Positions 1,014-30,484 are shown, numbered from the stretch's first letter. The stretch: 32,000 bases of DNA from Hyperthermus butylicus DSM 5456 (GCF_000015145.1 NC_008818.1:1380001-1412000); one strand, 5' to 3'. Notes: a model not told the origin generated them from the letters alone. Numbers and translations: made by a program.

Positions 1014-1790
1014 GTGCAAGTGTTGCACCTCACCATCTACATTCACCCATCCTGCCCTGCCAGCCGCAACCTGGTGCTATACCTCCACGAGAAGGGGCTC
1101 CTTAACCGGGTTGAACTCGTCTCGACGGCACGGCCATCTACATCGGGTTTGTTGAGGGAGGCTGTGTGGAGCGTACCGTGGCTTGTGGGAGAGGGGGTGC
1201 CGCTTGCAACGGACCCCATAGAGCCCGGGGAGGCGGAGCTCATCATAAGGGAGTTTAGGACTACGAGGACCAGCAATCCGCTGGATGATTTCGCTGAGGC
1301 TATCCTCCACAGCGCTTACGCGTCCGCAGTAGCATATCTTCACGGTAGCCTTGAGCCGGTACTGGATTGCGACTTTGTCATGGCTGCTACTAGGGCCAAG
1401 CTGCGTGGTCTGGACGTCTCCCAGGTGCTCCTCGAGGCTGGGCACCGTGCTGCAGACCTCTACGCCGACCTGGAGGACAAGATAATGAGGGCCCTCGGGA
1501 TATCCTATGTACGCGAGCTCTACTGGGCCAGCGGCGGGAGCCTAAGCCGGGAGGAGCTTGTAGAGCTAGCAACACCCATACATGTCGGTGCGTGGCTGAT
1601 AGCCAAGGCCAGCCTTGGCCGGAGCGGGCTCCCCTCGAAGCCGGTGCCGGATAAGGCCAGGCTTGAGAGGCTCGCAAGCTTCGTTAGGAGGGGTGCAGCT
1701 GGCCTGCTTAGGAGGATTGAGAGAGAGTACCAGGAGGTTATGGAAGATGAAAACTACTGGAGGATACTTGAGGAGCACGGGCTAGCCTAG
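1014..1790 (+). CDS. Hypothetical protein; the N-terminus resembles a thioredoxin/glutaredoxin fold with a single-Cys CPAS motif
   Basis: 258-aa ORF with a GTG start. The N-terminal LTIYIHPSCPASRNLVLYLHEKGLLNRVELV has the beta-alpha-beta look of glutaredoxin-like proteins; the rest is helical with no motif I recognise. Its stop shares a palindromic CTAG (1787-1790) with the convergent hemB. Confidence 0.5.
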   Translation: MQVLHLTIYIHPSCPASRNLVLYLHEKGLLNRVELVSTARPSTSGLLREAVWSVPWLVGEGVPLATDPIEPGEAELIIREFRTTRTSNPLDDFAEAILHSAYASAVAYLHGSLEPVLDCDFVMAATRAKLRGLDVSQVLLEAGHRAADLYADLEDKIMRALGISYVRELYWASGGSLSREELVELATPIHVGAWLIAKASLGRSGLPSKPVPDKARLERLASFVRRGAAGLLRRIEREYQEVMEDENYWRILEEHGLA

Positions 1791-2803
1791 AACGGGCTGT
1801 AGCCCTCCCGGAGCCACCGAGCCACGTCAAGCGCATGATAAGTTATCACTATGTCTGCACCCGCCCTCCTTATAGCAGTTATTATCTCCATTGTTACGAG
1901 CTTCTCATCTATCCAGCCCTTCTCAGCAGCAGCCTTGACCATGGAGTATTCTGCGCTCACGTTGTAGGCTGCTAGGGGGTACTGGGGAAACGCCTCCTTA
2001 ACCAGTCTTATAACGTCAAGGTATGCCAGGGCCGGCTTCACCATGAGGATATCCGCTCCCTCCTCGATATCCAGCATCGCCTCCTTAATCGCCTCCATCG
2101 CATTCCTCGGGTCCATCTGGTAGCTTCTCCGGTCGCCAAACCGTGGTGCTGATCCAGCAGCCTCTCTGAATGGGCCGTAGAAGCCGCTGGCATACTTTAC
2201 AGCATAGCTCATAATCCCGACCTCGGTGTAGCCAGCGTCGTCTAGCGCCTCCCTTATCGCTGACACCATACCATCCATCATTCCTGAGGGAGCTACGAAG
2301 TCTGCTCCAGCCTCAGCGTGGGTGACAGCTATGCGGGCGATGACCTCTAGGGTTGAGTCGTTGTCTATGAGCTGTCTCCCGTGCCTTTCAACGGGTATGC
2401 CGCAATGCCCATGGGTGGTGTAGCCGCATATGCAGACGTCGGTGAAGATGGCTGGCTCCCAGCCGAGCTCGCGGCGTATCAGCCTTATCGCAGTGGGCAC
2501 GGGGCCCCGTGGGTCGTAGGCGTAGGTGCCGCGGAGGTCCTTCTTCTCGTCCGGGACAACGCCGAACAATAGGAATGACTTGATGCCGAGGTCTAGTGCC
2601 TCGCGTATAACGTCCACGACCCTCTCCGGGGGATAGCGGTACTGGCCCGGCATGCTGGGGATGGGCTCGGGCTCCTTTATCCCCTCCTTAACGAATATCG
2701 GCATCATGAGCTGGCTGGGCGAAACCAGGGTCTCGGCGACAAGGTCGCGGATCGCCTTGGTGAGCCTTAGCCTCCGAGGCCGGAGCTCAGGGAACCCGGG
2801 CAC
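1787..2803 (-). CDS. hemB: Porphobilinogen synthase (delta-aminolevulinic acid dehydratase)
   Basis: 338-aa ORF. The N-terminus FPELRPRRLRLTKAIRDLVAET, then SMPGQYRY, GIKSFLLFGV, a TDVCICGYTTHGHCG-type metal site, APSGMMDG, YASGFYGPFREAA, DRRSYQMDP and ADILMVKPAL are all classic ALAD/HemB blocks. Confidence 0.95.
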   Translation of the reverse strand: MPGFPELRPRRLRLTKAIRDLVAETLVSPSQLMMPIFVKEGIKEPEPIPSMPGQYRYPPERVVDVIREALDLGIKSFLLFGVVPDEKKDLRGTYAYDPRGPVPTAIRLIRRELGWEPAIFTDVCICGYTTHGHCGIPVERHGRQLIDNDSTLEVIARIAVTHAEAGADFVAPSGMMDGMVSAIREALDDAGYTEVGIMSYAVKYASGFYGPFREAAGSAPRFGDRRSYQMDPRNAMEAIKEAMLDIEEGADILMVKPALAYLDVIRLVKEAFPQYPLAAYNVSAEYSMVKAAAEKGWIDEKLVTMEIITAIRRAGADIVITYHALDVARWLREGYSPF

Positions 2804-2916: not shown

Positions 2917-3546
2917 TTGCGCAGGATACTCCTAGCCTACCATCGGCCAGGCAAGCCCCGGGAGGAGGAGAGGGTCGAACAGCTAGCCCAGACGGTAGCG
3001 ATGTTGGCGCGCGGCAGGCTAGCTGTGGACACAATGGTTGTCGATGAGGTTGACGAAGCTGCAGGTGAGAGATACGACGCGATATACCTCCTAATGTTCA
3101 CCAGGGGTGGCCACTGGCTCTCCGTGATAGAGGCTACTGGTAGAACGCCAAAACTGATACCCCTACACCTAACAGCCGCGATACTAGCCTCGAGAGCGGC
3201 TGAAGCAGGGGCCAGGAGGCTCCTGCTCTTAGGCCTCAGGGCCCGCAGGCTCGAGCACCTACAGCTAGAGGACCTGGGGAGGCTGAGCCTCCTACTGGCA
3301 ACCTGGAAGCTGGGGATGAGCTACCAGCTCCTAGAAGCCATTGACTCCCAGCCCAGGATGCAGGAGAAATGGTGCCGCAGCGACACTCTAGTAGCGCCAC
3401 TAGCTCTCCTCGACGGCAAGCTAGCGGACCATGCCAGAGCCCTAGCAAAAGCATGCGGTGCAGCCCACGCAGGCCCACTGCTACACCACTCAGCTCCCAC
3501 GATAGCAGCCTGGATAGCCGAAGACGCGGCCTACCCCAGGGTGTAG
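2917..3546 (+). CDS. Hypothetical protein, tentatively a degenerate CbiX/SirB-like class II chelatase
   Basis: 209-aa ORF with a TTG start, divergent from hemB. It has two pseudo-repeated halves: RILLAYHRPG...YLLMFTRGGHWLSVIE and RLLLLGLRAR...LVAPLALLDGKLADHA. These loosely resemble the CbiX pattern (LLLVGHGSR ... vvPlfL..G.H). The functional call is weak and rests on motif resemblance only. Confidence 0.35.
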   Translation: MRRILLAYHRPGKPREEERVEQLAQTVAMLARGRLAVDTMVVDEVDEAAGERYDAIYLLMFTRGGHWLSVIEATGRTPKLIPLHLTAAILASRAAEAGARRLLLLGLRARRLEHLQLEDLGRLSLLLATWKLGMSYQLLEAIDSQPRMQEKWCRSDTLVAPLALLDGKLADHARALAKACGAAHAGPLLHHSAPTIAAWIAEDAAYPRV

Positions 3547-3597
3547 AGGGAATGAACAAGATAACCCCTCCACAAGCACAGTAGACATGCAGGAGCC

Positions 3598-3952
3598 CCG
3601 GGGGCCCCGAAGGGGCTCCGCGCGGGTAGGGCCGGGGGGCTCGCCCTCCCCCCACGCCCGAAACGGGCGCAATGCGGGGGCCAGTAACCCGGCTTGGGGC
3701 TGTAGGCCCCCGCGGCAGACCCAGCCGACCAATGACCCCCGTCCCGCGGGGCCGGCGGCGGCGGAGCCCCCTCCGGAGGGAGGGCGGCTACCGCCCTTGC
3801 CGGGGGAACCAGGCCAGGCCCGGAAGGGAGCAACCTAACCCCGGACGCCCGGCGTTCGCGGGGGCGCGGGGTGAGGCAACGGCTGGGCCCGCTGCCGCCG
3901 AGGGTCTACAGCCGCAAGCCGGGGGCCGCGCGGGCCCCGGGAGAGCCCCGTG
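3598..3952 (+). ncRNA. ffs: Signal recognition particle RNA (archaeal 7S / SRP RNA); ends approximate
   Basis: A very GC-rich, ORF-incoherent stretch. It contains the universally conserved SRP domain IV (helix 8) motif CCAGGCCCGGAAGGGAGCAAC at 3814-3834 (compare E. coli 4.5S CAGGUCCGGAAGGAAGCAGC). A helix-6-like hairpin CCCCCTCC-GGAG-GGAGGG lies just upstream. The 5' GGGGCTCCGCGCGG (~3611-3625) is complementary to the 3' CCGCGCG...GAGCCCC (~3926-3949), closing the molecule at an archaeal-typical length of about 300-350 nt. Confidence 0.85.
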
Positions 3953-4504
3953 CCTCCTCCTTCCGGTGCTAGCGCTTATCCCCAGGCCGGCCGGCACACT
4001 ATTCTACACGGGCCGGGTATCGCCCGGGCAAGCGTGCCGCGTAACGGCGCGGGGATGAGCCCGGGTATCCGTTCCAGGCCCCAGACGGGGGCACAAGCTC
4101 CTCCTCAACTTGCCGGCCTACTTCTATGGCGGTGACGCAGTTGTTGCCAGCTGGATTTTGCGGGCAGAGCTGCTTTGGCCATAACCGCCCACTGGTGGTG
4201 TCTAAGCCCGCGTCTACAGGGGCATAGCTGCTAGGAGGATCAGAGTATGCCCGGGTGCTGTGTCCAATATACATGTGTGTCCAAGGAAGCTAGAGGAGGA
4301 AATGGAAAAAAGCTCAGCGGCTTATTTTTAACTGAGAGGAGAGATATGAAGCTTCTAGAGGAGAGGGTGAAGCGGCATCGCAGGCTTGCAGGCCTAGGCC
4401 AGCAAGGTGCTTGAGCAGTGTTCAGTCATTCCGAGGGGCACGGCGGTAGGGTGCAACGTAGAGCCGTGATCGACTTGTCGCGAAGGAATGCTGTCCTGGA
4501 GGTG

Positions 4505-4702: not shown

Positions 4703-5075
4703 ACACCTCTACATAATAAGCAGCGATAATTAACGGTTTGCTCTGGGAGTATGGCCTGCATGTACCTAGCCTGGCCCGAGACAAGAGGAACTAGTCTTAG
4801 GCTGTCCCTCCCTGAGGGCTGGTAGAGTGTCTTCTCCTGCTCGACAGTAATGCTGCAGGTTCAGCTACGCTAGTGTCTCCTAAGGCAGGCTTCTTGCGGC
4901 ACCGGAGTCCTGCACGGTTGCTAGCCATGGTGTAACGGGACGCAGTGGTGTTTGTAACAGTAGTTAATTAACATATCATGGTGTGCCGAAAAATTAGGGT
5001 TGTAGACATAACTAGATGCACGTAATTGTCGAACTATCACGGCCTAGACAAGGGTGTGTGGAGGTACGTCGGGGC

Positions 5076-7583
5076 ATGAAGCGTCTTCTATTAGCTAGCA
5101 TTATAGTTGTGACTCTCCTTCTATCGAGTGCTGCACCAGCCTTCGCGGCTCAGTTTGGCGATGAGCTGGTAGCTAAGGTTCAGGAGCTAATGCAGAGTGA
5201 CAAGGTGAGCCCACAGACAAAGCTGTGTATAAGCTGCCACATACAATACACGCCAGGCATTGTATACGAGTGGGCCAACAGCAAGCATGCAATGTACACG
5301 CCAGCCGAGCTAGCAGAACTCTACAAGGCCATTGGTGCCCCGGAGTGGGCTGACAAGATAGCCGACAAGTTCAAGGACTATCCGTACGTCGTGGGCTGCT
5401 ACGAGTGTCACGGTATGTTCAAGGAGGCCGATAGGCCCGACGTGATCGAGAACCACAACGGCTACAAGATAGTGACCATTGTCACCAGGAAGGACTGCAG
5501 CCAGTGCCACCCCAAGGAGAGCGCAGAGCTGAGCTGGACCTGGCACGCGACCGGTGCTGCTATGTCGCCGTTTAAGCCCTGGTACCAAGGTATTCTGGAG
5601 TGGGCCAAGAGCCAGGGTGCAAACCCGTTCGGCGACGAGCAGGCCAAGCAGCTTTACGAGAAGTACCTCCCACCATACCTGACCAAGCAGCGCGGTGTAG
5701 ATGACGTCAACTGGGACTTCTACAAGGAGATCGCAAAAGCTGTAATGGACTACTTTGAGACCGGCCAGGAGAACGACATAATAAAGATACTCAAGGAAGC
5801 AACCGGTATGATAACACCATATGACATGGACTTCAAGAACTGGATAAGCCCGCTATGGCCGGCCAGCGGCGTGCTCAACACAACAATACTAAAGAAGCTG
5901 AATATCGAGGTAACCGTAACAGCTATGGGTGAACAGACAGCAACAATAAACAACATCATGGAGCACCCAATGTTTAGGAACGGCTACTTGTACCACGCAT
6001 GTTTCGAGTGTCACGGCAGCATAGTTGTTCCATACAAGAAGGAGACCGTTAACATCAACGGCGTACAGGTTAGCAGGGTAGCCCTATGGGGCTGGCCAAA
6101 CAACGGCGCGGCCCGTATAGACCCCGACGGTAGCCTCGGTACATGTACAGCTTGCCACCCGAGACACTTGTTTAGTGTGAAGCAGGCACGCGAGCCATGG
6201 ACCTGTGGCCAGTGCCACCTAGGCTATGACCACCCACACATTGAGATCTATGAGGAGAGCAAGCACGGCAACATCTGGGACGCCTATGGCCATGAGTGGA
6301 ACTGGGAGCAGATACCATGGCGTGTAGGCGTCGACTTCAACGCGCCAACCTGTGCCACATGCCACATGAGCACCCTGGCAGACGCTAATGGCAACATACT
6401 AGTGCCGGGCACTCACGACCTAGCAAGGAGGCTGGTATGGGATCAGATGCACTTCTTCAGCCACCCGAAGCCAGTGATACCAGACAAGCTCCAGGTAAGC
6501 TTGTTCCTTGGCGGCTTTAGCGTGCTAAAGGGCAAGATGGAGGACGTCTACGCAGCAGCCGAGAAGATACCAGAAAGCTCGCCATACAAGTACCCTGTCT
6601 TCATGGGCCTAAAGATCGTCGACGAGGTGAAGCCAGGCGAGCCAGGATTCCCAAGGCTGCTAAAGATAGAGTACACTGGCGAGCTAAAGGAGCACCGCGA
6701 GGAGATGAAGGCTGTATGCAAGCTATGCCATAGCAGCCAGTGGGTGGACAACTTCTTCCGCACAGCTGACCAGAACATCATTGACTATGACGTAGTTGCT
6801 AGGTTTGCATTTAGCCTGCTACAGCTAGCCTGGAATGAGGGCATACACGATAACACGAACCCGCTCGACGAGTACATGGAGATAATGTGGTACTACATCT
6901 GGCACCATGAGGGCCGCCGCTGGAGGAACGGCGTCTTCATGATGGGTCCAGACTTCGCCCACTGGTTTGGCATCGTTGACACTGTCCTGGACAAGCTAGG
7001 CAGGATGACTAACTACCTCTACATAGCGATGAAGGTGAGGCTGCTAGAGACCGAGCTGCAGGCGCTAAAGCAGGCTGCTGCTGGCGCACCATACACGCCA
7101 GAGCTAGCGGCACAGATAGCAGAGCTACAGAAGGAGCTGGAGACCCTCAAGCAGCAGCTAGCAGCTCTAGAGGCGCAGGTGCCAGCGCTAAAGAGCCAGA
7201 TACAGAGCCTAGAGGCTGGCTACAGCAGCGTTGAGGGCGAGCTAGGCACGCTGAAGACTGATGTCAGCACGCTGCTACAGCAGCTAGACGAGCTGAGCAA
7301 GCAGCTGGAGGCTCTAAGCCCACAGGCCAAGGATATACAAGCGCTAGTCTCTAAGATAAAGGAGATAGCTGTGCAGCTAGAGCAGCTGGGCCAGAAGACC
7401 GAGGCAGCGAGCAGCAAGGCTAGCCAGGCGCTAGCAACTGCTGAGGAGATTGGCAGCAAGATCGACGAGCTAAGCAGCAAGATAGACAGTGTATCCGCAA
7501 CGGCCTACACCCTGGGCGCTATAGCGCTAGCAGCTGCTGTAATAGCTCTAGGCTTATCGATACTCTACAGCCGCCGCAGCTAG
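5076..7583 (+). CDS. Octahaem c-type cytochrome of the hydroxylamine oxidoreductase (HAO) family, with a signal peptide, a C-terminal coiled-coil stalk and a TM anchor
   Basis: There are eight CxxCH motifs: CISCH, CYECH, CSQCH, CFECH, CTACH, CGQCH, CATCH and CKLCH. Their contexts are HAO-family-typical: EWANSKHA after haem 1, GTCTACHPRHLFS, CGQCHLGYDHPHIEIYEESKHG, APTCATCHM. I place the start at ATG 5076 (MKRLLLASIIVVTLLLSSAAPAFA|AQ, preceded by GGAGGT) rather than the track's 5016. The C-terminus is ~150 aa of heptad-like sequence, one TM helix, then RRS. Confidence 0.85.
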   Translation: MKRLLLASIIVVTLLLSSAAPAFAAQFGDELVAKVQELMQSDKVSPQTKLCISCHIQYTPGIVYEWANSKHAMYTPAELAELYKAIGAPEWADKIADKFKDYPYVVGCYECHGMFKEADRPDVIENHNGYKIVTIVTRKDCSQCHPKESAELSWTWHATGAAMSPFKPWYQGILEWAKSQGANPFGDEQAKQLYEKYLPPYLTKQRGVDDVNWDFYKEIAKAVMDYFETGQENDIIKILKEATGMITPYDMDFKNWISPLWPASGVLNTTILKKLNIEVTVTAMGEQTATINNIMEHPMFRNGYLYHACFECHGSIVVPYKKETVNINGVQVSRVALWGWPNNGAARIDPDGSLGTCTACHPRHLFSVKQAREPWTCGQCHLGYDHPHIEIYEESKHGNIWDAYGHEWNWEQIPWRVGVDFNAPTCATCHMSTLADANGNILVPGTHDLARRLVWDQMHFFSHPKPVIPDKLQVSLFLGGFSVLKGKMEDVYAAAEKIPESSPYKYPVFMGLKIVDEVKPGEPGFPRLLKIEYTGELKEHREEMKAVCKLCHSSQWVDNFFRTADQNIIDYDVVARFAFSLLQLAWNEGIHDNTNPLDEYMEIMWYYIWHHEGRRWRNGVFMMGPDFAHWFGIVDTVLDKLGRMTNYLYIAMKVRLLETELQALKQAAAGAPYTPELAAQIAELQKELETLKQQLAALEAQVPALKSQIQSLEAGYSSVEGELGTLKTDVSTLLQQLDELSKQLEALSPQAKDIQALVSKIKEIAVQLEQLGQKTEAASSKASQALATAEEIGSKIDELSSKIDSVSATAYTLGAIALAAAVIALGLSILYSRRS

Positions 7584-7726: not shown

Positions 7727-9244
7727 ATGCAGCTGGCCCGCTACGTGGCGGCTATGGTGTTGTTGGAGTTCATTGTCGGCCACGTGGTTCTTGCCGGTGT
7801 TGTGGAGGGTTTGTTGGCTAGGGACTTCTATAGGCTTGTTGTAGTGTTTAGAGAGCCTCTGGACGGTGATGCATGGAGTGTCTATGTGGCGTTTAGTGGG
7901 CCGGGGGCAGGTGTGAATTGTAGCGGGCAGCTGCGCCCTAACCTGTACTACCTGCAGACCAAGACTATCTCCCGCGGCTTGGTGGTGGCACCACTCTACT
8001 ATGTTCTCAGCAGCATCTGTCCCAGGGTGCTCTCGGAGTTACAGCTCCTAGCTGGAAGTCGTGGCGATGAGCTGCTGGTTGTCGAGCTGGAAGCCCCCCA
8101 GGGCTACTCTGTTAGGAGTGGCATGGACTGGCGCGGGTTCGGCAAAGCTGGCGGTCCCTACACTCTCCCGCTCAGCGCTTTTGTGAGATACTACGTGTTT
8201 GACGGCGTTGTAGTTGCTGGTGAGGAGTATCGGGTGGTTGACGACTCGGCGCTAAACCTTACGGTGGTGGCTCTGCAGGCCTCGAAGGAGACTGTTGAGT
8301 ATACAGTGGAGAGTCTTGTGGCTGTGCGGGATGCGGTTGCAGAGTGGCTTGGCCCTAGCCCCCGCTCGCCGGTTGTACTCGTAGTTGCCGGGCCGGGAGA
8401 GCACCAGTACCTGCCGCCCGGCACCGCCCACAGCATGGGGGGTGTGGTCTACGTCAAGCTGGGTGTGGTGGAGAACCTCCCATGGCTCGTCCACACGGTG
8501 GCACACGAGGCTCTCCACGGTTGGTTCAACCACGGCATGCTCTACGGCGATTTCAGCTTCCAGGAGGCGGCGGCAGAGTTCCTAGCGGTGAAGGCCCTGC
8601 ACGACCAGAGGCCGAGCCTCTACGAGCTTGCAGCTAGCTACCTCGAGTACATGCTGGCAGTGGACGAGCAGTATGCTGTGTGGATGCGTGTCAACGCTGC
8701 GCTATGGCATGCAGGGCTGAGAGCCTGCGGGGAGGACTTGTACATGTACGCGGTCCGGGAACTGTACAATAGGGTTATCACGGATGGGTTCTCGGGGCCC
8801 GTAAGCCTGCTAGACGTGGCCTCGCTAATGGTCGAGAAGGCGTCCACACAGTGCAGGGAGGCCCTAGAAGCGATGATAGGCTGGGTACTCCTAGCACCTA
8901 GGAGTGGGACTAGCGAGTGGCCATACATAGACACCGGCAGCTACAATGCCGGGGCTGGAACATCAGCCATAGACAGCCTTGGTACGCATGTAGAGCCGGT
9001 GGTCCCCTACAACGCCACCCTGCCGGGGATGGAGCAGTCCGAAGCTGGTAGTGGAGAGAGCGGGGCAGCCCAGAGCCAAACGGGGGCACGGGCTCTACAT
9101 CCCGCGGGCCAGCCGGAGCCTACTCCAGGCGCATGTGGGGGATCCGGGAGCCCTACCTACTGGCTAGTGGTTGGCTTCGTGGCAGGGCTGGGGGTAGCCT
9201 CCCTGGCCTGGATTGCTGCTAGGCGGCGTAGGGGGAGGAGCTAG
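7727..9244 (+). CDS. Membrane-anchored extracytoplasmic protein with a gluzincin-like HExxH motif (putative zinc metallopeptidase)
   Basis: 505-aa ORF with a hydrophobic N-terminal signal/anchor (VAAMVLLEFIVGHVVLAGVV). VHTVAHEALHGWFNHGMLYGDFSFQEAAAEFLA resembles the M1/MA-clan HExxH(Q/G)WF...E arrangement. The C-terminus is a Gly/Ser/Pro/Ala-rich linker, a TM helix (YWLVVGFVAGLGVASLAWIAA) and RRRRGRS. Confidence 0.55.
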   Translation: MQLARYVAAMVLLEFIVGHVVLAGVVEGLLARDFYRLVVVFREPLDGDAWSVYVAFSGPGAGVNCSGQLRPNLYYLQTKTISRGLVVAPLYYVLSSICPRVLSELQLLAGSRGDELLVVELEAPQGYSVRSGMDWRGFGKAGGPYTLPLSAFVRYYVFDGVVVAGEEYRVVDDSALNLTVVALQASKETVEYTVESLVAVRDAVAEWLGPSPRSPVVLVVAGPGEHQYLPPGTAHSMGGVVYVKLGVVENLPWLVHTVAHEALHGWFNHGMLYGDFSFQEAAAEFLAVKALHDQRPSLYELAASYLEYMLAVDEQYAVWMRVNAALWHAGLRACGEDLYMYAVRELYNRVITDGFSGPVSLLDVASLMVEKASTQCREALEAMIGWVLLAPRSGTSEWPYIDTGSYNAGAGTSAIDSLGTHVEPVVPYNATLPGMEQSEAGSGESGAAQSQTGARALHPAGQPEPTPGACGGSGSPTYWLVVGFVAGLGVASLAWIAARRRRGRS

Positions 9245-9419: not shown

Positions 9420-10106
9420 ATGTGCCAGTACTCCCGTGCAGAGTGGAGCCTGGCAGCTTTAGCCCTAGCCGCGGTGGTAACACCCCTACTCTACGCTGCA
9501 ACGGCGAGCGCCCAGGACGCCACGCAGCTCTATCCGTGTACCACTTGCCACAATGTCCTAAACCTAACCGGCGACAGGAAGGCAGTGCCATTCCACGGGA
9601 TAGACCTTACCGTGGGGGCACACCGTGGGCTCTACTGCTCCAACTGCCACGTCGCGCCTGTGATGCAGGAGCTTGTTAATGGTGCCGAGGTCTACATTCC
9701 AGGGTTGCACACAATGGAAGAGCTCATGGAGACCAATAAGGTGTGCGCCGTATGCCATCCACGAGAGTTTGCGGACTACCAGTACTTGGTGCATGGTAAC
9801 AAGACCTATGTCTGCCCAGGCGGCAACGTGACGAAGGTTATAGGTTACAAGGGCGTGACCTACGACTTCCACATCTGCAGCGATTACCGAAACCTAGAGA
9901 CGGTACCCGCCAGGGCCTGCGTGGAATGCCACAACCCTCATACACCAACCATGCCACCGGTCAGTATCCTGCCGGTACCCTCTGAGAGGCCAGCACCACC
10001 CGACGAGTCAAGCATTGCATACGGTACAGCAGCTGCTGTTATAGGCGGGCTAATTCTCGCCATAGGCGCCCTCATCCTCCCCCTAGGTCACACGCGTAGC
10101 CGGTAA
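9420..10106 (+). CDS. Tetrahaem c-type cytochrome, signal peptide plus C-terminal TM anchor
   Basis: Four CxxCH motifs (CTTCH, CSNCH, CAVCH, CVECH). The start is placed at ATG 9420, with GGAGGTG 7 nt upstream; the track start is TTG 9405. Signal peptide WSLAALALAAVVTPLLYAATASA|QD. The C-terminus is AAAVIGGLILAIGALILPLG followed by HTRSR. Confidence 0.85.
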   Translation: MCQYSRAEWSLAALALAAVVTPLLYAATASAQDATQLYPCTTCHNVLNLTGDRKAVPFHGIDLTVGAHRGLYCSNCHVAPVMQELVNGAEVYIPGLHTMEELMETNKVCAVCHPREFADYQYLVHGNKTYVCPGGNVTKVIGYKGVTYDFHICSDYRNLETVPARACVECHNPHTPTMPPVSILPVPSERPAPPDESSIAYGTAAAVIGGLILAIGALILPLGHTRSR

Positions 10107-10125
10107 AGCTGGGGTGGAGGCCGGG

Positions 10126-11194
10126 ATGGTGGAGAGGAGCAGCCCAGGAAAAAACAGTACCCAGGTTGATCGGTCTAGGAGGGAATTCCTCAAGGCAGCT
10201 ACTGTTGCAGCTAGCGTCTCGGCAATCTCCTTCCTAGCTGTGAACCGGGACGAGCTGGATAGAGTCCTGGTGCCGGTTAAGCTTGGGGACCTCCTAGCTG
10301 AGGCTGAAGAGGGCGAGAGCGAACTCGAGCGCAGGGCTAGGAGGAAGGAGGAGGAGCTGAGGAAGTGGTGCCAGGCGGAGGCCGAGAAGATATGTGGCGA
10401 GTACGGTGAGGACTCTGACGCTTGTAGGGAGGCTAGGAAGCGCTGCGAGATGATAAGGGTTAAGGCTACGGGGCCCCGGAAGGGAGCCCGCTACGCCATG
10501 GCCCTTGACATTAACAAGTGTATAGGGTGCCGCCGCTGCGCCTACGCTTGTGTCATGGAGAACAATCAGGCGAGAAACCTGGGGATAGAGTGGATCAGAG
10601 TACTAGAGCTGCCCAGGGAGGGGGAGCTAGAGCTACTTCACGCCGACATGTACTACGCCGAGGCCCCCAAGGAAGGACAAGGTCTACGTGCCAGTAGCAT
10701 GTATGCACTGCGAGAACCCGCCGTGTGTCATGGTTTGCCCGGTTAGGGCTACCTGGAAGGAGCCCGATGGCATTGTAGTGATTGACTATGACCGCTGCAT
10801 AGGCTGTAGATACTGTATAACAGCATGTCCCTACGGTGCACGCCGCTTCAACTGGGCCAAGCCCTATGTGCCAGTGACAGAGCTAAACCCCAACATGCAC
10901 ATACTCGGCAACGTGCCACGCCAGATACACGTCGTGGAGAAGTGTACCTGGTGCATACAGCGCACCCGCGATGGCGGCGTACCGGCGTGCGTCGAGGTCT
11001 GCCCTGTTGGTGCGAGAGTCTTCGGAGACCTCAACGACCCTGAGAGTCCGATACGCCGCGTCCTAAGAGAGTACGGTGGCTTCGTATTGAAGCCCGAGGC
11101 TGGCACCAAGCCCAGATTCTTCTACTTCTTTGGCCCCAAGCGTACACCTCCACGCGAATCCACGGAGACAAGGGCAGCTCAGGGACAAGGGTAG
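10126..11194 (+). pseudogene. Tat-exported 4x[4Fe-4S] ferredoxin-type subunit (NrfC/PsrB/ActB2-like), interrupted by a +1 frameshift at a C5 run (10664-10668)
   Basis: The first frame (to 10746) carries the twin-arginine signal SRREFLKAATVAAS and cluster motif CIGCRRCAYAC. The second frame, open from 10631, carries CMHCENPPCVMVCP, CIGCRYCITACP and CTWC..ACVEVCP. Deleting one C from GAGGCCCCCAAGG restores a continuous ...YYAEAPRKDKVYVPVACMHCENPPC... The start could be GTG 10114 or ATG 10126, the latter with GGAGG upstream. Confidence 0.75.
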
Positions 11195-11218: not shown

Positions 11219-12475
11219 ATGACGCGTAGCGGTGGCTTCCTAGACACGATAAAGTACGTTATCCGGGAGGCGCTACTAACTGGTAGCCCACGCTACTACA
11301 TGGCATTCTTGGGCCTGCTGCTGGTAGCAGCGTACGGCATCTACCTCTGGATATTCGTCCAGCATGCCCCGATATTCCTCGGCAAGGATGAGGGAGGCCT
11401 AATACTCACCAACCTCAGCGACACTGTGCCATGGGGGATCTACATATCGTTCTTCGTGTTCTGGGTCGGAGTGGCAGCGGCAGGCATAATGTTCGGCATA
11501 GCAGCATACGTATTCGGGGACAAGGAGTTCAAGAAGGTAGCGGTACTCGGCGAGGTACAGGCGGTAGCAGCAATAATAACCGTGCTGACACTAATCATGG
11601 TCGATGTCGGTAGGCCGTTCCGCGCGCTAATACTGCTACCGCAGCTGCCAAACCTAAAGTCGATGCTAGACTGGGACTTCATAGTGCTAACCACCTACCT
11701 AGCACTAAATCTGATAGGTGTGCTGGTAACAGTGCACTACTACCGCCAGGACAAGCCGCTACCCAAGAAGTTCATAGTGCCATTCATAATCATAGCGGCG
11801 CCCTTCGCGATAGGTATACACACTGTGACAGCATTCATATCGCAGGCACTAACAGCTAGGCCTATCTGGAACAGCCCACTACTCGCACCACGCTATGTTG
11901 CAACAGCATTCGCTAGTGGACCAGCCATACTGCTAATAGCACTATACCTCGCCGAGCGCTACATAGACGGTTTCAAGGTAGACTTCAGCGTCTACAAGAA
12001 GACTCTATACGTAATAGTAGGCTCGCTGATAGTAGGCCTATACTTCACCTTCAGCGAGATTCATGAGATATTCTGGTACACCACTGAGTCTATGAAGAAG
12101 GCGCAGGCTGAGGTGCTATTCTTTGGCTACCACGTGCCATACCTAGCGATACTAGTGTGGCTCTGGATAGGCCTAGGCATAGCGGCAGTAATCCTAGGCA
12201 TACTGCCACGGGTACACAATACGAAGAGGGGCATACTCTTAGTCTCGGCAATAACGGTGATAGCAGTGGTGGCAGAGAAGACGATGACGATAATCATACC
12301 AGGATACATACCAGGAAGCCTTGGCGAAATACGCCCATACTACCCGACACCGCTAGAGATAGGTATAACGATCGGCGTACACGCGCTAGGCATACTAGTC
12401 TACCTGCTACTCGCAAGGCCAGCGCTGAAAGCAGTGATAACCCACTACTACAAAGGCGGCAGTGTACACCACTAA
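11219..12475 (+). CDS. NrfD/PsrC/ActC-family polytopic membrane subunit (quinone/quinol-interacting)
   Basis: 418-aa highly hydrophobic ORF with about 10 predicted TM helices. The family-typical N-terminal block is ...TNLSDTVPWGIYISFFVFWVGVAAAGIMFG. It sits immediately downstream of the NrfC-like gene, which is the usual pairing. Confidence 0.85.
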   Translation: MTRSGGFLDTIKYVIREALLTGSPRYYMAFLGLLLVAAYGIYLWIFVQHAPIFLGKDEGGLILTNLSDTVPWGIYISFFVFWVGVAAAGIMFGIAAYVFGDKEFKKVAVLGEVQAVAAIITVLTLIMVDVGRPFRALILLPQLPNLKSMLDWDFIVLTTYLALNLIGVLVTVHYYRQDKPLPKKFIVPFIIIAAPFAIGIHTVTAFISQALTARPIWNSPLLAPRYVATAFASGPAILLIALYLAERYIDGFKVDFSVYKKTLYVIVGSLIVGLYFTFSEIHEIFWYTTESMKKAQAEVLFFGYHVPYLAILVWLWIGLGIAAVILGILPRVHNTKRGILLVSAITVIAVVAEKTMTIIIPGYIPGSLGEIRPYYPTPLEIGITIGVHALGILVYLLLARPALKAVITHYYKGGSVHH

Positions 12476-12643: not shown

Positions 12644-13246
12644 ATGCGTGACCGCGCCTCGGCGCCTGTGTTACTTACAGCGGTACTCGTACTAGCACTA
12701 GCATCCATAGGTGCTGCCGCACTATCCGCGGAGGAGGCTGAGAAGCTATTCCAGTCGAGCGGTTGCACGGGCTGCCATAACGGTGTAGTAGCGCCAGACT
12801 TTCAGGGCACCATAGCAGTCATTAGGGAGTGGGCATCAAAATATGAGACCCTCGACGAGGCTGTGGCTGCAGAGGCTCCCAACTTTAAGATGTTTAATAA
12901 TGCTAAGAGCTGGGATGAGCTAATGAGCTCGATGCCGGGAATAACACCTGAGCTCAAGGATTACTTTGCAAGGGTTTTCGAGGAGGCAAAGACTGGAGCA
13001 GTACCAGTCCAGGAGCAGCCAGCAGGTGAAACCACCGAACAGCCAGTGCAGCCGACAACACCGGTGGTGACGCAACCAAAACCCAAGCCGGCGGTTAACG
13101 TCACGAAACTGCCAGAGGTATCGGCTCCAAACCCCTCAGCGCAGGCAGAATCACTAGTAAAGACAGGCCTACCGGCAGGCGTAGCAGTCCTCATAACAGC
13201 AATAGTAATCCTGGCAGCCTTCACAAAGAAGGCCAGGCAGCACTAA
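12644..13246 (+). CDS. Monohaem c-type cytochrome (class I-like) with a Pro/Thr-rich linker and a C-terminal TM anchor
   Basis: Signal peptide (VLLTAVLVLALASIGAAALSA). A single CTGCH lies near the mature N-terminus and a candidate distal Met is in MSSMPG. The linker is PVQEQPAGETTEQPVQPTTPVVTQPKPKP, followed by the TM helix GLPAGVAVLITAIVILAAF and KKARQH. Confidence 0.8.
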   Translation: MRDRASAPVLLTAVLVLALASIGAAALSAEEAEKLFQSSGCTGCHNGVVAPDFQGTIAVIREWASKYETLDEAVAAEAPNFKMFNNAKSWDELMSSMPGITPELKDYFARVFEEAKTGAVPVQEQPAGETTEQPVQPTTPVVTQPKPKPAVNVTKLPEVSAPNPSAQAESLVKTGLPAGVAVLITAIVILAAFTKKARQH

Positions 13247-27043: not shown

Positions 27044-29467
27044 CTAACGGTGTAGGAACCACAAGCTAGTCCACTCAATGGCAACTGTGAAGTCCATATC
27101 GTTAATAGTGTTATATGCTGTCCAGCCATTAGTTTCAAGCTCACTTACGTAGGGATCGTTGAAACCCAGCACAACATAGAATGTCTCGTTCCTATCTGGC
27201 ACTGCCAGGTAGACGGCATCGGTTAGGAAGTTGGTGTTAGGAGGCCATGTATCCTCAACGTCGTCGAGCTCCTGGTAGATGTACTCTCTACTCGAGAATA
27301 CATAGCCAGTACTATTTATCAGGTAGACTCCGAACAAGCCCTTACGGGGATCGTCAACATCCCCCGTGTCTGAGCCCGAATTATCGTGGAAGTAGTAGCG
27401 AAGCTGCATCGACACTTGCGCCACCTCGCTGCCGTTGACCTCATATCCTATAAATACGACGTATATCGTGGCTGTAGTATAGTCAATACAGCCTCTAGCA
27501 TTAAAGTCCGATAAAATTGTGCCATCCGGCAACCTATACATACTTCTATATATACTTGTTGCATAGCCCACTATATCGTCGTAAGTGTAGTCCCATCCGA
27601 TTCCAGTCTCCTCAGTCATAAACACTAACTCCGTTAACCCGTTCGTATCAACATCCACGAAGGCTATGTATGGGTCAAGACCACCAGTTTCATCTACCTG
27701 AAACTCATAAAGTAACACCTTCACGTCTTTTGCATACAAGGTGCCAATAACATAATTGTTACCTTTGGGACCGGATACGGCACCGTAAAGGCCACTATAA
27801 CCTTCCACGTAGTAGAAGCCAGCGTAGTAGTAAAAGCCGAACGCTTTAGTATCGTTCAGCCAGCCACTTGTGCGGTAATCATAGAGTTCAAGGAAGTGCG
27901 CCTTCTGGGCAGCCAGTTTCACGCGGAATGGATATGGAGTCAAGCCGCTGATATCGTTGCTTTCGTCGTCTATAATTGGACTGGCTACAACTACTAGATC
28001 TCCTGCTGTGCCATAACCTGTTGAATCTATGATCACACCGGTACGGTTAACGTAATCAGAGCCTAGTGTCACGTTTAAGTCATAAACCTTCATCACGTAT
28101 GTAACCCGCCACTGACTCGTAGCGGATCCTTCGACTTTTAAGCGGGCAAGCCAGCAGCCACTCCCACGAAATACGACGCCGTTCCATGATGTTTTATTCT
28201 CTGGAGGACACCATATCGAGATAGGCCATCCTTCCTGATCTATGCCGCGAACAAACAGCCCTACACCATTGAGATCTAGAATTGCTCGCTCAATAGTAAA
28301 GCTTAGTTCTTCGTTCTCAGCGCCAATGTTGTAGTAGCTCGTTTCAACCGGTGCTTTTGCCAGTAGTGATGTGAGGGAACCAGTGGAACCTAGTGGGCAC
28401 ACATTCTTCATGTAGACATTGTTATCTCCGCCCACGTAGAGGCCGGTGAAGCATAGCTCCCAGCTTCCATCTGGCTTCTTGGCAACAATTGTGCCAAGGT
28501 GTACACCATCATCGGTGAAGCTTGGCCTCCATGGAATCCAGGTATATCCGGCATAGAGTAGCGAGATGCTATACTTTGACTCGGTATAGCTGCCGCCCAT
28601 ACCGCCAAGCACAAAACTGCCTGCAAACGGCATCATAGAGTCTATATAGACAAGGTCATAGACCTTCTCCCCGCTATACTTGTAGGCACCAAGCGCCCAG
28701 TACCCGATATCATCGTTTGTTTCAATGGTATGGTATCCCTTATCGGTTGCGCAGAGTGCCCTTGTAATACCGCTATCTGCTATTGTATCCTGGCTCTTTT
28801 TTGGCTCTGCAAGGTTTGTAGTGACTGCTATATCGGGGTTTTGCAATAGATCATCCAGACTTGTGTAATTAACGAATATTAGGTAGTATGCTTGTACAGC
28901 TCCAGCAACCTCTGCGTATGTCGTCTGGCTTTCGGCGAGTTTTAGTACTGGTATGTAGCTGCCTTCAACCAAGAATATCCCTAGCAGCTCGCCGTTAGTG
29001 ATGATTACCTTCACATACTCGCCAGGTTTGATTGCTATACCACCGTAGTTAAGTATCCAGGAGCTAGGTGATGGTGACACCTTAAACCTAGTGGAGCCAC
29101 TAATACCGCAGCCTAGGGTGCAGTTACCTGCCTTCACTAAATGGATATAGCCATTGTCGTCACGTACTATTAGTAGGTACACAATGTGAAGTCGTGAATC
29201 TTTGTTCGTTAATGTGTATGTTTTAGTTCCACCGCTAACCGTCACAGAGATGTCCAGCTTAGGTATGGCAGTCCTGGCCTTCTCAAATAGCGTAGATACG
29301 AGTCTGCTATGTGTAACATTGCTGCTAGCATGAAGGTATATGATGAACGGTATTAGCACAGATATCAGGAACGTAATTATGATTATTGCTGCAATGGTAC
29401 CCGATATACCCCTAGTAGGCCTTGTAAGTTTCGGCAATGCCAGCCACCGAGATACCCTTAGCTGCAC
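27044..29467 (-). CDS. Large (807 aa) extracellular protein with an archaeal class III (type IV pilin-like) signal peptide; putative surface filament or adhesin component
   Basis: The N-terminus ...PKLTRPTRG|ISGTIAAIIIITFLISVLIPFIIY fits the [KR]G-[ISA] prepilin-peptidase site followed by a hydrophobic helix. There is an alternative in-frame TTG start at 29437. The body is Tyr/Gly/Thr/Val-rich with many N-x-S/T sequons (NVT, NCT, NYT, NKT, NRT, NDT, NGS, NST, NET). The DNA is AT-rich; one 60-nt line I hand-counted was 27/60 GC. Confidence 0.7.
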   Translation of the reverse strand: MQLRVSRWLALPKLTRPTRGISGTIAAIIIITFLISVLIPFIIYLHASSNVTHSRLVSTLFEKARTAIPKLDISVTVSGGTKTYTLTNKDSRLHIVYLLIVRDDNGYIHLVKAGNCTLGCGISGSTRFKVSPSPSSWILNYGGIAIKPGEYVKVIITNGELLGIFLVEGSYIPVLKLAESQTTYAEVAGAVQAYYLIFVNYTSLDDLLQNPDIAVTTNLAEPKKSQDTIADSGITRALCATDKGYHTIETNDDIGYWALGAYKYSGEKVYDLVYIDSMMPFAGSFVLGGMGGSYTESKYSISLLYAGYTWIPWRPSFTDDGVHLGTIVAKKPDGSWELCFTGLYVGGDNNVYMKNVCPLGSTGSLTSLLAKAPVETSYYNIGAENEELSFTIERAILDLNGVGLFVRGIDQEGWPISIWCPPENKTSWNGVVFRGSGCWLARLKVEGSATSQWRVTYVMKVYDLNVTLGSDYVNRTGVIIDSTGYGTAGDLVVVASPIIDDESNDISGLTPYPFRVKLAAQKAHFLELYDYRTSGWLNDTKAFGFYYYAGFYYVEGYSGLYGAVSGPKGNNYVIGTLYAKDVKVLLYEFQVDETGGLDPYIAFVDVDTNGLTELVFMTEETGIGWDYTYDDIVGYATSIYRSMYRLPDGTILSDFNARGCIDYTTATIYVVFIGYEVNGSEVAQVSMQLRYYFHDNSGSDTGDVDDPRKGLFGVYLINSTGYVFSSREYIYQELDDVEDTWPPNTNFLTDAVYLAVPDRNETFYVVLGFNDPYVSELETNGWTAYNTINDMDFTVAIEWTSLWFLHR

Positions 29468-29510
29468 CTAAATCCTAATTCTAAGAGAGAGGTTAGTATT
29501 TGAGTACTAG

Positions 29511-29518
29511 TATAAAAC
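29511..29518 (-). promoter_or_regulatory. Candidate TATA box for the pilin-like two-gene operon
   Basis: The minus strand reads GTTTTATACTAG, with TTTTATA ~44 nt upstream of GTG 29467. Confidence 0.35.
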
Positions 29519-29875
29519 CTTTCCTCGAAGAGGCAGGCAAAAATCGAACAGCAAGGAAATGAACGAGAGCAACTTGGTAAACCCACAGCTAAGCACTCTC
29601 CACCCAGGTATTAACACCCCCGAACAGGGTAAACCGAACCACAACCACAGACTAGAAGTGGAGCCCGCAGGGCCCGCCCCACCCTCCCCGCGCACAACCC
29701 AACACACCGAGCCGCCGGGGCCCCGGGGTCCGTTGGGCCGGCCCAGGGGGTGGGGTTGGGCTCTGTGGGCTCTCCATTCTCTCTTGCTAGTAGCTTGCCT
29801 GTGTTGTTGCTAGTTCTTCGAGGTGGGTTAGTGCTGGTAGTTCCTGGATGAAGCCTTTGAGCCTTGAGACGGGGA

Positions 29876-30484
29876 CTATGAGACGCCCTCGGCTAGCTTG
29901 GGCACGTTTTCGCGCAGCGTTATGATGACTGGTATGAGTCGCCATGTGCCTCTTGGTAATCTCAGCTTCCACCAGAGCTTGGCGAGCCTCTCTAGTCTCT
30001 CGCGGTGCTGTCGTGCGGCTTCCCGGAGCCTCGATGGTGTTGCTGTTCGCGGGTTCCAGTGTTTGCAGTCCACTACGATGCCTAGCTTTGCTGGGGGGTC
30101 GAGCCCTAGCACGTCTACTTCTAGGCCTCCCTTTCCTGGCACCCTGAGGCTGCGGTAAACCGTGTAGCCCGCCTCCTCGAGCGCCTTGGCTGTATAGTCT
30201 TCGAACATTTTCCAGTCGAGGCTCCTAGCTACGATGGTCTCGGAGGCCCCGTTCTTCACGGCGGCTATTGCCAGCTCGACAGGGTCGTGAAGACACACTA
30301 CGCCCTCTTCGATGGTTATGGCGCTTGTCGCCTTGGCAAGTGTTTGGAGGGCGTTTTCCACCACTATGGGTCGTAGGAAGGCCTTCTCGGCTATCTCTGT
30401 GACCGGCTTGCAGCCCTGTGGCGATAGCTCGGAGAGGATTATCGTGGCTAGCGCTGAGACTGTTAGTTTGTGCCGGCACGGCAC
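29876..30484 (-). CDS. Restriction-endonuclease-fold (PD-(D/E)xK, Mrr-cat-like) protein with a probable N-terminal winged-helix domain
   Basis: The C-terminal half FEDYTAKALEEAGYTVYRSLRVPGKGGLEVDVLGLD...LGIVVDCKHW fits the E...D-x-D...(D/E)-x-K layout of Mrr-type nuclease cores. The N-terminal ~90 aa is helical. Confidence 0.5.
   Translation of the reverse strand: MPCRHKLTVSALATIILSELSPQGCKPVTEIAEKAFLRPIVVENALQTLAKATSAITIEEGVVCLHDPVELAIAAVKNGASETIVARSLDWKMFEDYTAKALEEAGYTVYRSLRVPGKGGLEVDVLGLDPPAKLGIVVDCKHWNPRTATPSRLREAARQHRERLERLAKLWWKLRLPRGTWRLIPVIITLRENVPKLAEGVS

Follow-up and report, generated by a model that had tools for sequence, protein, structure and literature searches.

Octahaem cytochromes c of the HAO (hydroxylamine oxidoreductase) type are on record in archaea as a cluster of 13 proteins, 10 of which carry a C-terminal transmembrane (TM) helix (Kletzin et al. 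2015, Table S2, cluster 4; PMC4429474). One of the 13 is Hbut_1389 of Hyperthermus butylicus DSM 5456, and the subject of the present analysis is the C-terminal tail of this protein, encoded in a stretch of 32,000 nucleotides (nt) that was analysed as a whole (NC_008818.1:1380001-1412000; referred to below as the window). The same survey names Hbut_1389 as a protein with a coiled-coil extension and a TM helix at its C-terminus, names Pyrfu_1334 of Pyrolobus fumarii along with it for the coiled-coil extension, and expects in its main text that archaeal cytochromes c are held under the surface layer (S-layer) by C-terminal anchors (PMC4429474). Further discussion of the stalk was not found in the open papers searched. 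The feature is real and has been on record for Hbut_1389 since 2015, though it was not analysed there; the novelty that an earlier prediction from the DNA alone (the sequence-only reading) had implied for a stalked, tail-anchored HAO is therefore not borne out. What is added here is a register map of the stalk, a conserved Pro motif, a set of length classes, and conserved gene linkage.

The closest solved structure is that of IhOCC (Igni_0955, PDB 4QO5) from Ignicoccus hospitalis, which has the same eight-haem head and comes from the same archaeal order. IhOCC is grouped with HAO and hydrazine dehydrogenase (HDH) as clade 1 of Soares et al. 2022, a family in which three C-terminal helices serve oligomerisation, and it is described as a nitrite reductase without the P460 cross-link (PMC9250108). 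It consists of 551 amino acids (aa), has neither a predicted TM helix nor a stalk, and its chain ends approx. 29 residues past the last aligned head motif. Compared with IhOCC, Hbut_1389 adds approx. 180 C-terminal residues and an insertion of approx. 135 aa between haems 3 and 4.

The octahaem head and its coiled-coil tail

The Hbut_1389 gene corresponds to an open reading frame (ORF) of 855 aa at 5016..7583 (+), and the interval 7040-7583, which encodes the tail, is the 3' end of that ORF. The public protein copy (P0001, 835 aa) begins at Met21 of this mechanically called ORF (nt 5076), which is likely the true start; it is preferred over the ATG at 5016, 20 codons upstream, because Met21 alone gives a signal peptide. 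Residue numbers below follow the 855-aa ORF unless P0001 or 835-aa numbering is stated. The sequence is identical to A2BMK2_HYPBU of Table S1 in Kletzin 2015 over the part printed there, for which the TMHMM topology i5-27o809-831i (835-aa numbering) is given (PMC4429474). Judged by its sequence, Hbut_1389 belongs to the octahaem cytochromes c of the HAO/IhOCC family, is exported by the Sec route, and is a type-I membrane protein: the cleaved signal peptide, the attachment of haem outside the cell, and the basic C-terminus together indicate a type-I, tail-anchored exoprotein.

The tail is strongly biased in composition and periodic in its hydrophobicity. Within residues 676-831 (156 aa), Ala, Leu, Glu, Gln, and Ser account for 102 positions (65%), while Asn, Cys, Phe, His, Met, Arg, and Trp do not occur at all. 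Fourier power at a period of 3.5 residues reaches 3.27, compared with 0.25 +/- 0.25 for shuffled sequences (0 of 2000 attain the observed value), and there is no peak at a period of 3.6. A dynamic programme that scores heptad register gives 30.3 for the same residues against 3.3 +/- 2.4 for 1000 shuffles, the largest of which scored 14.3 (z = 11.4); the helices of the head, used as a control in this test, give z = 2.8. Position d of the heptads is occupied by 15 Leu, 3 Ala, 2 Val, and 2 Ile, and position a by 7 Leu, 6 Ile, 5 Ala, 2 Thr, 2 Val, and 1 Tyr; the register test describes this core as 100% apolar or Thr, with the one Tyr among the listed a residues. The length of the longest single-register run was also considered and was dropped as evidence, as shuffled sequences yielded runs equally long under the switching penalty used. 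The strongest hydrophobic window of the whole protein, TLGAIALAAAVIALGLSIL (832-850), follows the heptads (maximum over a 19-residue Kyte-Doolittle window) and is itself followed by YSRRS and the stop codon. Taken together, the tail of approx. 156 aa is a genuine, conserved coiled-coil sequence ending in one TM helix.

Most of what the sequence-only reading had said about the tail is upheld. The point from which it placed the coiled coil, nt 7040, falls in codon 675, where the region that can be aligned with IhOCC and HAO ends; the Ala/Gln/Leu/Glu/Ser-rich heptad character agrees with the composition and the register score, and the protein does end in a single TM helix and RRS. To call the heptads uninterrupted was, however, an overstatement, as the register is broken at GAPYTP (690-695) and at SPQA (768-771) and the tail contains four Pro and six Gly residues.

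The description of the head as HAO-like is likewise correct, and "IhOCC-like" is more precise. All eight CxxCH motifs are invariant across alignments of 46-62 homologues and occur in the order and with the spacing of the family. Among solved structures, the head is closest to 4qo5 (E=3.9e-79), followed by HAO-like, HAO, and HDH chains (6h5l, 2e-19; 1fgj, HAO, 2.7e-16; 4n4j, 1.5e-13; 6hif, 2.8e-10), and it matches Pfam PF13447 with 78.9 bits against a cut-off of 21.9. An AlphaFold2 (AF2) monomer model of Hbut_1389, built from 62 sequences, has a mean predicted local distance difference test score (pLDDT) of 86, and a Foldseek search with this model again places 4qo5 first (target TM-score 0.76) and HAO-like, HAO, and HDH structures after it. 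By reference to its nearest relative IhOCC, which is without the cross-linking Tyr, the enzyme is assumed to be reductive; its head would most likely act on nitrite or hydroxylamine as in IhOCC, or else on another acceptor. The insertion between haems 3 and 4, which is lacking in HAO as well as in IhOCC, lies at 5586-6000 of the window (aa ~190-328), is modelled by AF2 with high confidence, and is kept in close archaeal homologues.

The three C-terminal helices of the family are present in the AF2 model (554-587, 600-621, and 625-668 in P0001 numbering). The third of them is kept in all homologues, stalk-less ones included, and in Hbut_1389 it leaves the head straight into the tail; the heptads start inside this helix, at approx. 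aa 664.

The DNA that encodes the tail had also been described as repetitive, with recurrent short units. This holds for GAGCTG, with four copies in the interval against approx. 0.9 expected from its density in the window, but is overstated otherwise. Tandem Repeats Finder detected zero repeats in the tail-coding DNA, and tandem-repeat DNA was rejected on this ground. CAGCAGCTAG occurs in two exact copies, and its count across the window is not above chance. The direct repeats that are present belong to families of only 20-35 nt with 60-76% similarity, spaced mostly at multiples of 21 nt because the DNA mirrors the heptads.

Conservation of the tail was examined in a protein search with Hbut_1389, which gave 2181 matches clustered at 90% identity. 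Among the best 65 of these 2181, approx. 55 clusters carry a coiled coil, a TM helix, and an R/K-rich end. Named sources of the stalked proteins are Pyrodictium, Pyrolobus, and Pyrofollis, and the others are metagenome-assembled genomes (MAGs) of Desulfurococcales; members of the family occur widely among hydrothermal Desulfurococcales and Pyrodictiaceae. This comparison of C-termini across HAO homologues, which had been proposed as a check, shows that the tail is no unconserved artefact. Measured from the GIVDTV motif to the TM helix, the tails fall into classes of 177-216 residues (Pyrodictium delaneyi, Pyrolobus fumarii, Pyrofollis japonicus, and a second group with a different insert, P0051-P0060), 98-146 residues (Desulfurococcales MAGs, also labelled Acidilobaceae), and 35-47 residues, the last comprising proteins that possess a TM helix (P0062-64) and others that lack it (Igni_1359 of Ignicoccus hospitalis and relatives). 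Sequence divergence is faster in the stalk than in the head, with identities to Hbut_1389 of 76% vs 81%, 44% vs 73%, 34% vs 65%, and 26% vs 57% (stalk vs head), although the heptad pattern is retained, and judged from these alignments this is the behaviour expected of a structural spacer.

Several local features of the stalk are conserved as well. Among Pyrodictiaceae-type proteins the hinge is kept as G-A-P-Y-x-P, and a register shift of the SPQA type is seen in most close homologues; across the family, register changes past the hinge are mostly of 3, 4, or 5. One stalk segment, L-x-x-[KR]-L-x-A-[LM]-E-[AS]-[QE]-[VI]-P-x-L, recurs approx. 55-67 residues after GIVDTV (homologues P0002-P0061). 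In particular, its Pro, scored with the motif [AS][LM][ENQ]xx[VILM]P or, more strictly, E[AS]x[VILM]P, is present in approx. 51 of the 56 homologues that bear a stalk. The segment might most obviously serve as a hinge or for docking.

Among the GTDB species representatives listed as matches, the TM helix lies 193-294 residues past the last haem in stalked Thermoproteota and 113-120 residues past it in proteins of the Hydrothermarchaeota type; a long stalk occurs only in Thermoproteota, the Hydrothermarchaeota type has a short coiled coil and an anchor, and most bacterial representatives have no anchor. In the homologues from Hydrothermarchaeota and Methanobacteriota MAGs (loci L010-L014, L016, and L024), the short coiled coil is followed by ...KGVCGPTAIAAIALLPLAGYAALRRRKL, with Cys-Gly-Pro conserved just before the hydrophobic stretch; this end resembles a C-terminal sorting or lipidation signal and not a plain anchor. 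A homology search for other enzymes on such a stalk, made with the tail alone (676-855), gave none at E<=0.001 among 2957 candidates, and a PDB search with a short query spanning the junction of head and stalk returned designed coiled coils only.

A candidate trimeric rod and the alternatives to it

HAO is a homotrimer, and we consider it probable, with some reserve, that the stalk of Hbut_1389 is a parallel homotrimeric rod that acts as a spacer and tether for the haem head in a proposed path of electrons. In such an arrangement, the head would trimerise via the three C-terminal helices of the family, and the third helix of each chain would pass, with no break between domains, into a parallel coiled coil of three strands and approx. 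136-156 residues. At its far end, each chain would have one TM helix and a short, basic tail in the cytoplasm, and the rod would hold the haem head in the space beneath the S-layer; the Gly/Pro hinge just under the head and the one heptad discontinuity would allow limited flexibility. A parallel trimer is favoured because three helices that emerge from a head of three-fold symmetry could be expected to form a three-stranded coil. The grounds for the proposed oligomeric state are the trimeric state of the family and the continuity of the stalk with the third oligomerisation helix. From a rise of 0.148 nm per residue, 136-156 aa give 20-23 nm. The height of approx. 20 nm that the sequence-only reading had assigned to the head is thus sound as arithmetic, and we infer it for the case in which the tail is extended. 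Electrons would probably come from the quinol pool via the adjacent NrfD-like, NrfC-like, and tetrahaem proteins, passing from quinol to NrfD, NrfC, the tetrahaem protein, and the octahaem head, all on the outer face of the membrane.

Several points weigh against this rod and its electron path. In the two AF2 monomer models, the tail is divided into helices 16-40 residues long, pLDDT is 38-76 past approx. residue 710, and Foldseek matches to the tail are non-significant BAR-like hairpins only. The pattern of the core, with mixed Ile, Leu, and Ala at a and Leu at d, cannot separate a trimer from a dimer. Moreover, if the head were held rigidly at 20 nm, it would be out of reach of the tetrahaem donor, whose anchoring linker is short and Pro-rich; over this distance, the proposed path needs a stalk that bends or a diffusible carrier, and the problem might be solved by either of these, with bending at the hinge, or by acceptors at the S-layer. 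No figure for the width of the space beneath the S-layer in Hyperthermus or Pyrodictium was found in the papers searched, and the nrfC-like gene is frameshifted in this sequence.

The breaks in the AF2 monomers, which fall at Gly/Pro-rich points and divide the tail into five or six helices (675-699, 702-722, 730-745, 751-778, and 782-806 in Hbut_1389, 835-aa numbering; similarly cut helices of 29-40 residues in the homologue P0012), would suit a tail that folds back, within or between chains, into a compact antiparallel helical bundle on the membrane. The BAR-like hairpin matches agree with such a fold, and a head brought close to the membrane and to the tetrahaem donor would be relieved of the distance problem. 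Monomer predictions, however, routinely fold long amphipathic helices back on themselves, and here pLDDT is low (38-60) at the breaks and past them. The unequal lengths of the predicted helices (16-28 residues) suit a regular bundle poorly, and homologues contain single-register runs of 109-178 residues with few or no Gly or Pro. In particular, helices scored independently of one another keep their heptad phase across the loops: in P0012, which has 159 in-register residues, 4 of 4 share one phase (chance approx. 0.003 if the phases were independent), and in Hbut_1389 one phase is common to helices 1-3 and another, shifted by 4, to helices 4 and 5. Phase kept across predicted helix breaks favours, at the level of prediction, one long coiled coil with local perturbations, and a folded-back tail appears unlikely. 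It has also to be considered that the coiled coil is mainly a docking element, pairing with an S-layer stalk protein or with partner cytochromes, or that it is a dimer or tetramer, with LAA[LM]EAxVPxL as a binding site. A protease of Staphylothermus is known to bind the coiled-coil stalk of tetrabrachion (PMC5744192). In Hbut_1389, the one stalk segment with the nearly invariant Pro is conserved beyond what a pure spacer would need, and a core with Leu at d and Ile, Leu, Val, or Ala at a is compatible with dimers. The stalk nevertheless directly continues the last oligomerisation helix of a head family that oligomerises by its C-terminal helices and includes the homotrimeric HAO, the window yielded no candidate partner whose coiled coil would match, and the search with the tail alone was empty; a primary role in docking, or a state other than trimeric, is accordingly improbable in our estimate.

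Two further alternatives would deny the stalk any role in the mature enzyme. If the tail were a removable tether, inserted and then clipped, the head would be freed as a soluble enzyme under the S-layer; Igni_0955, like Igni_1359, has been found in soluble as well as membrane fractions (PMC4429474), and the gene next downstream codes for a tail-anchored protein that carries an HExxH motif. These two Ignicoccus proteins, however, have no TM helix whatsoever, and a disposable tether would not retain approx. 20 in-register heptads across approx. 55 clusters. The octahaem protein of P. delaneyi, Pyrde_0496, was identified by mass spectrometry in haem-stained bands of 140-160 kDa (PMC8105010), above the holo-monomer of approx. 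98 kDa; loss of the C-terminal region from the mature enzyme had been named as an outcome that would speak against a functional stalk, and the bands, which are not of a truncated size, argue against it. Clipping is considered very improbable on these grounds. The tail could, finally, be a functionless, lineage-specific artefact of low complexity, as its biased composition and its Pfam and NCBIfam matches, all of them to generic coiled-coil families below cut-offs, might suggest. This is contradicted by the apolar a/d core (z = 11) and by conservation: the architecture, and in part the sequence, is kept where heads are only 55-60% identical, and the tail always ends in a TM helix and basic residues. 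Such an origin is hardly credible, and the parallel trimeric rod is retained here as the preferred reading.

Features of the locus and neighbouring genes

The features of the Hbut_1389 gene and of the genes downstream of it are collected in the table.

Table. Coordinates in the window of Hbut_1389, the segments of its product, and neighbouring genes
Feature	Position (nt)	Strand	Remarks
Hbut_1389 octahaem c-type cytochrome gene	5076..7583	+	835 aa from Met21
Sec-type signal peptide MKRLLLASIIVVTLLLSSAAPAFA	5076..5147	+	AQ follows the cleavage point; N-terminal hydrophobic peak
Haem-rich head	5148..7040	+	eight CxxCH, at ORF residues 71, 128, 161, 329, 377, 397, 446, 568
Third C-terminal head helix	6948..7079	+	ORF aa 645-688, equal to AF2 helix 625-668 (P0001); pLDDT ~90
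Gly/Pro hinge GAPYTP (aa 690-695)	7083..7100	+	register slips by one; AF2 helix break
Coiled-coil segment 1 (aa 696-771)	7101..7328	+	~11 heptads in one register; includes Pro723 and three Gly
Conserved motif LAALEAQVPAL (aa 715-725)	7158..7190	+	Pro723 at heptad position b, nearly invariant
Heptad discontinuity SPQA (aa 768-771)	7317..7328	+	register +4, as with three inserted residues
Coiled-coil segment 2 (aa 772-831)	7329..7508	+	single register to the TM helix; sequence least conserved
Single TM helix TLGAIALAAAVIALGLSILY (aa 832-851)	7509..7568	+	Kyte-Doolittle 2.38; TM helix 809-831 in Kletzin Table S1
Cytoplasmic C-terminus SRRS and stop	7569..7583	+	positive-inside; all anchored homologues end R/K-rich
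Hbut_1390, 505 aa, unknown family	7727..9244		between octahaem and tetrahaem genes
Hbut_1391 tetrahaem cytochrome c	9420..10106	+	signal peptide, C-terminal TM anchor; Kletzin cluster 6 with Igni_0530
NrfC-like 4Fe-4S subunit	10114..11194	+	Tat signal SRREFLK; two frames
NrfD/DsrP-like integral membrane quinol-interacting subunit	11219..12475	+	PF03916 E=1e-36; DsrP model 243 bits, below cut-off
200-aa exported protein	12644..13246	+	signal peptide, one CxxCH, C-terminal TM then KKARQH

Four of the five exported proteins of this cluster are tail-anchored. Hbut_1390, which has no Pfam or NCBIfam family match, has an N-terminal hydrophobic segment, a C-terminal TM segment followed by RRRRGRS, and an HEALH motif of the HExxH type; it is possibly a tail-anchored exoprotein that resembles metalloproteases. 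Hbut_1391 is the probable electron donor of the octahaem head. A tail-anchored monohaem cytochrome of H. butylicus is mentioned in Kletzin 2015 and probably corresponds to the 200-aa protein, and a matching monohaem gene has been described in the P. delaneyi cluster (PMC8105010). In P. delaneyi, the set Pyrde_0485-0496 has been described as a putative membrane respiratory complex (PMC8105010). The combination that characterises an NrfCD-type module, a multihaem cytochrome next to genes for a Tat-exported 4Fe-4S protein and NrfD, is present in the window. Moreover, tetrahaem, NrfC, and NrfD genes lie directly upstream of the octahaem gene at a locus in a Desulfurococcales MAG whose octahaem protein is 48% identical to Hbut_1389; a scan of genome contigs lists mostly distant bacterial HAO loci, and cultured Pyrodictiaceae are not among the matches listed.

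The NrfC-like gene is frameshifted at approx. 10678: against the MAG homologue, frame 1 aligns with residues 1-187 as far as 10680, and frame 2 with residues 185-347 from 10673 onwards. Deletion of one base (C10678, just after a run of five C) restores ...APKEG-KVYVPVACMHCENPPC... The shift could be a sequencing error, the mark of a pseudogene, or a recoding site; if it is real, the proposed electron-input module would be broken in this strain.

Elsewhere in the window, porphobilinogen synthase (ALAD/HemB, E=5e-139), an enzyme of haem biosynthesis, is encoded at 1790-2803 (-), approx. 2 kb upstream of the cytochrome cluster. An archaeal signal recognition particle RNA (SRP RNA) lies at 3619-3932 (Rfam RF01857, 146 bits), and GC-rich ORFs at 3672-4058, 3531-3833, and others are spurious because they overlie it. 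A stretch of low G+C content at 27044-30484 (0.47-0.48 vs approx. 0.55 elsewhere) holds an 807-aa ORF with an N-terminal TM segment and no family match, beside a protein with an Mrr-type restriction endonuclease domain, and is possibly of foreign origin.

Implications and comparison with stalked and anchored proteins

The stalk offers a possible way for cells that have one membrane and a remote S-layer to fix the height of a large redox enzyme in their "pseudo-periplasm", and it sharpens the question of how electrons from a membrane quinol module reach a head that is possibly 20 nm away. The P. delaneyi member is expressed under nitrate and Fe(III) respiration, so the function of the stalk bears on extracellular electron transfer near 100 °C. 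On a more speculative and rather doubtful reading, the stalk might be a molecular ruler whose length classes (approx. 40 residues or none in the Ignicoccus type, approx. 100-145 or approx. 180-215 elsewhere) track the width of the space beneath the S-layer. The eight haems would then form a wire at the S-layer canopy from which acceptors that are insoluble or outside the cell, e.g. sulfur or Fe(III) minerals, could receive electrons, with the conserved Pro segment as a docking or hinge site for the partner that delivers them. To our knowledge, Ignicoccus has no S-layer. If true, a single polypeptide would do for these archaea what porin-cytochrome conduits do for Gram-negative bacteria.

Anchorage by the tail is not in itself the special part of Hbut_1389, as many shorter HAO-family proteins also end in a TM-like stretch and basic residues; it is the long stalk that sets the protein apart. 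In these plain-anchor proteins (475-560 aa), which include hydroxylamine dehydrogenases named as such in their source, a TM-like stretch and R/K residues follow a linker of 36-85 residues after the GxD[FYW]xH motif, compared with 182 in Hbut_1389. The closest counterparts are the orthologues Pyrfu_1334 of Pyrolobus fumarii, P0002 of P. delaneyi (probably Pyrde_0496), and PYJP_05600 of Pyrofollis japonicus, which are 57-78% identical over 93-97% of the length. All three have the same hinge, EAQVP motif, SPQ discontinuity, TM helix, and RR ending as Hbut_1389, and they differ from it by a small difference in the length of the distal stalk (tail of 180 aa in Hbut_1389 vs 187-197 aa).

Beyond the family, the order of elements, with a signal peptide, an extracellular domain, a long coiled coil, and a C-terminal TM helix, is that of SlaB, the S-layer stalk protein of Sulfolobales, which keeps the SlaA lattice approx. 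30 nm above the membrane (bioRxiv 10.64898/2026.08.21.746120). Hbut_1389 has the architecture of SlaB- and tetrabrachion-type proteins, namely a signal peptide, a long coiled coil, a single C-terminal TM helix, and a basic end, but it is not a homologue of SlaB: the tail matches the NCBIfam SlaB model at E=1.6e-5 over profile positions 314-395 of 416, with 24 bits against a cut-off of 700, which amounts to generic coiled-coil similarity. The heads also differ, that of SlaB being structural and made of Ig-like domains, whereas that of Hbut_1389 is a redox enzyme. In this respect, tetrabrachion and the STABLE protease of Staphylothermus marinus, also a member of the Desulfurococcales, offer a parallel, as a membrane-anchored coiled-coil stalk there sets protein mass, and with it an enzyme, far from the membrane, beneath the S-layer (PMC5744192). 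The tetrabrachion stalk is 70 nm long, four-stranded, and built in part of 11-residue repeats, and its enzyme is bound non-covalently; in Hbut_1389, by contrast, enzyme and heptad stalk are one polypeptide, and the rod would be approx. 20 nm long and presumably three-stranded.

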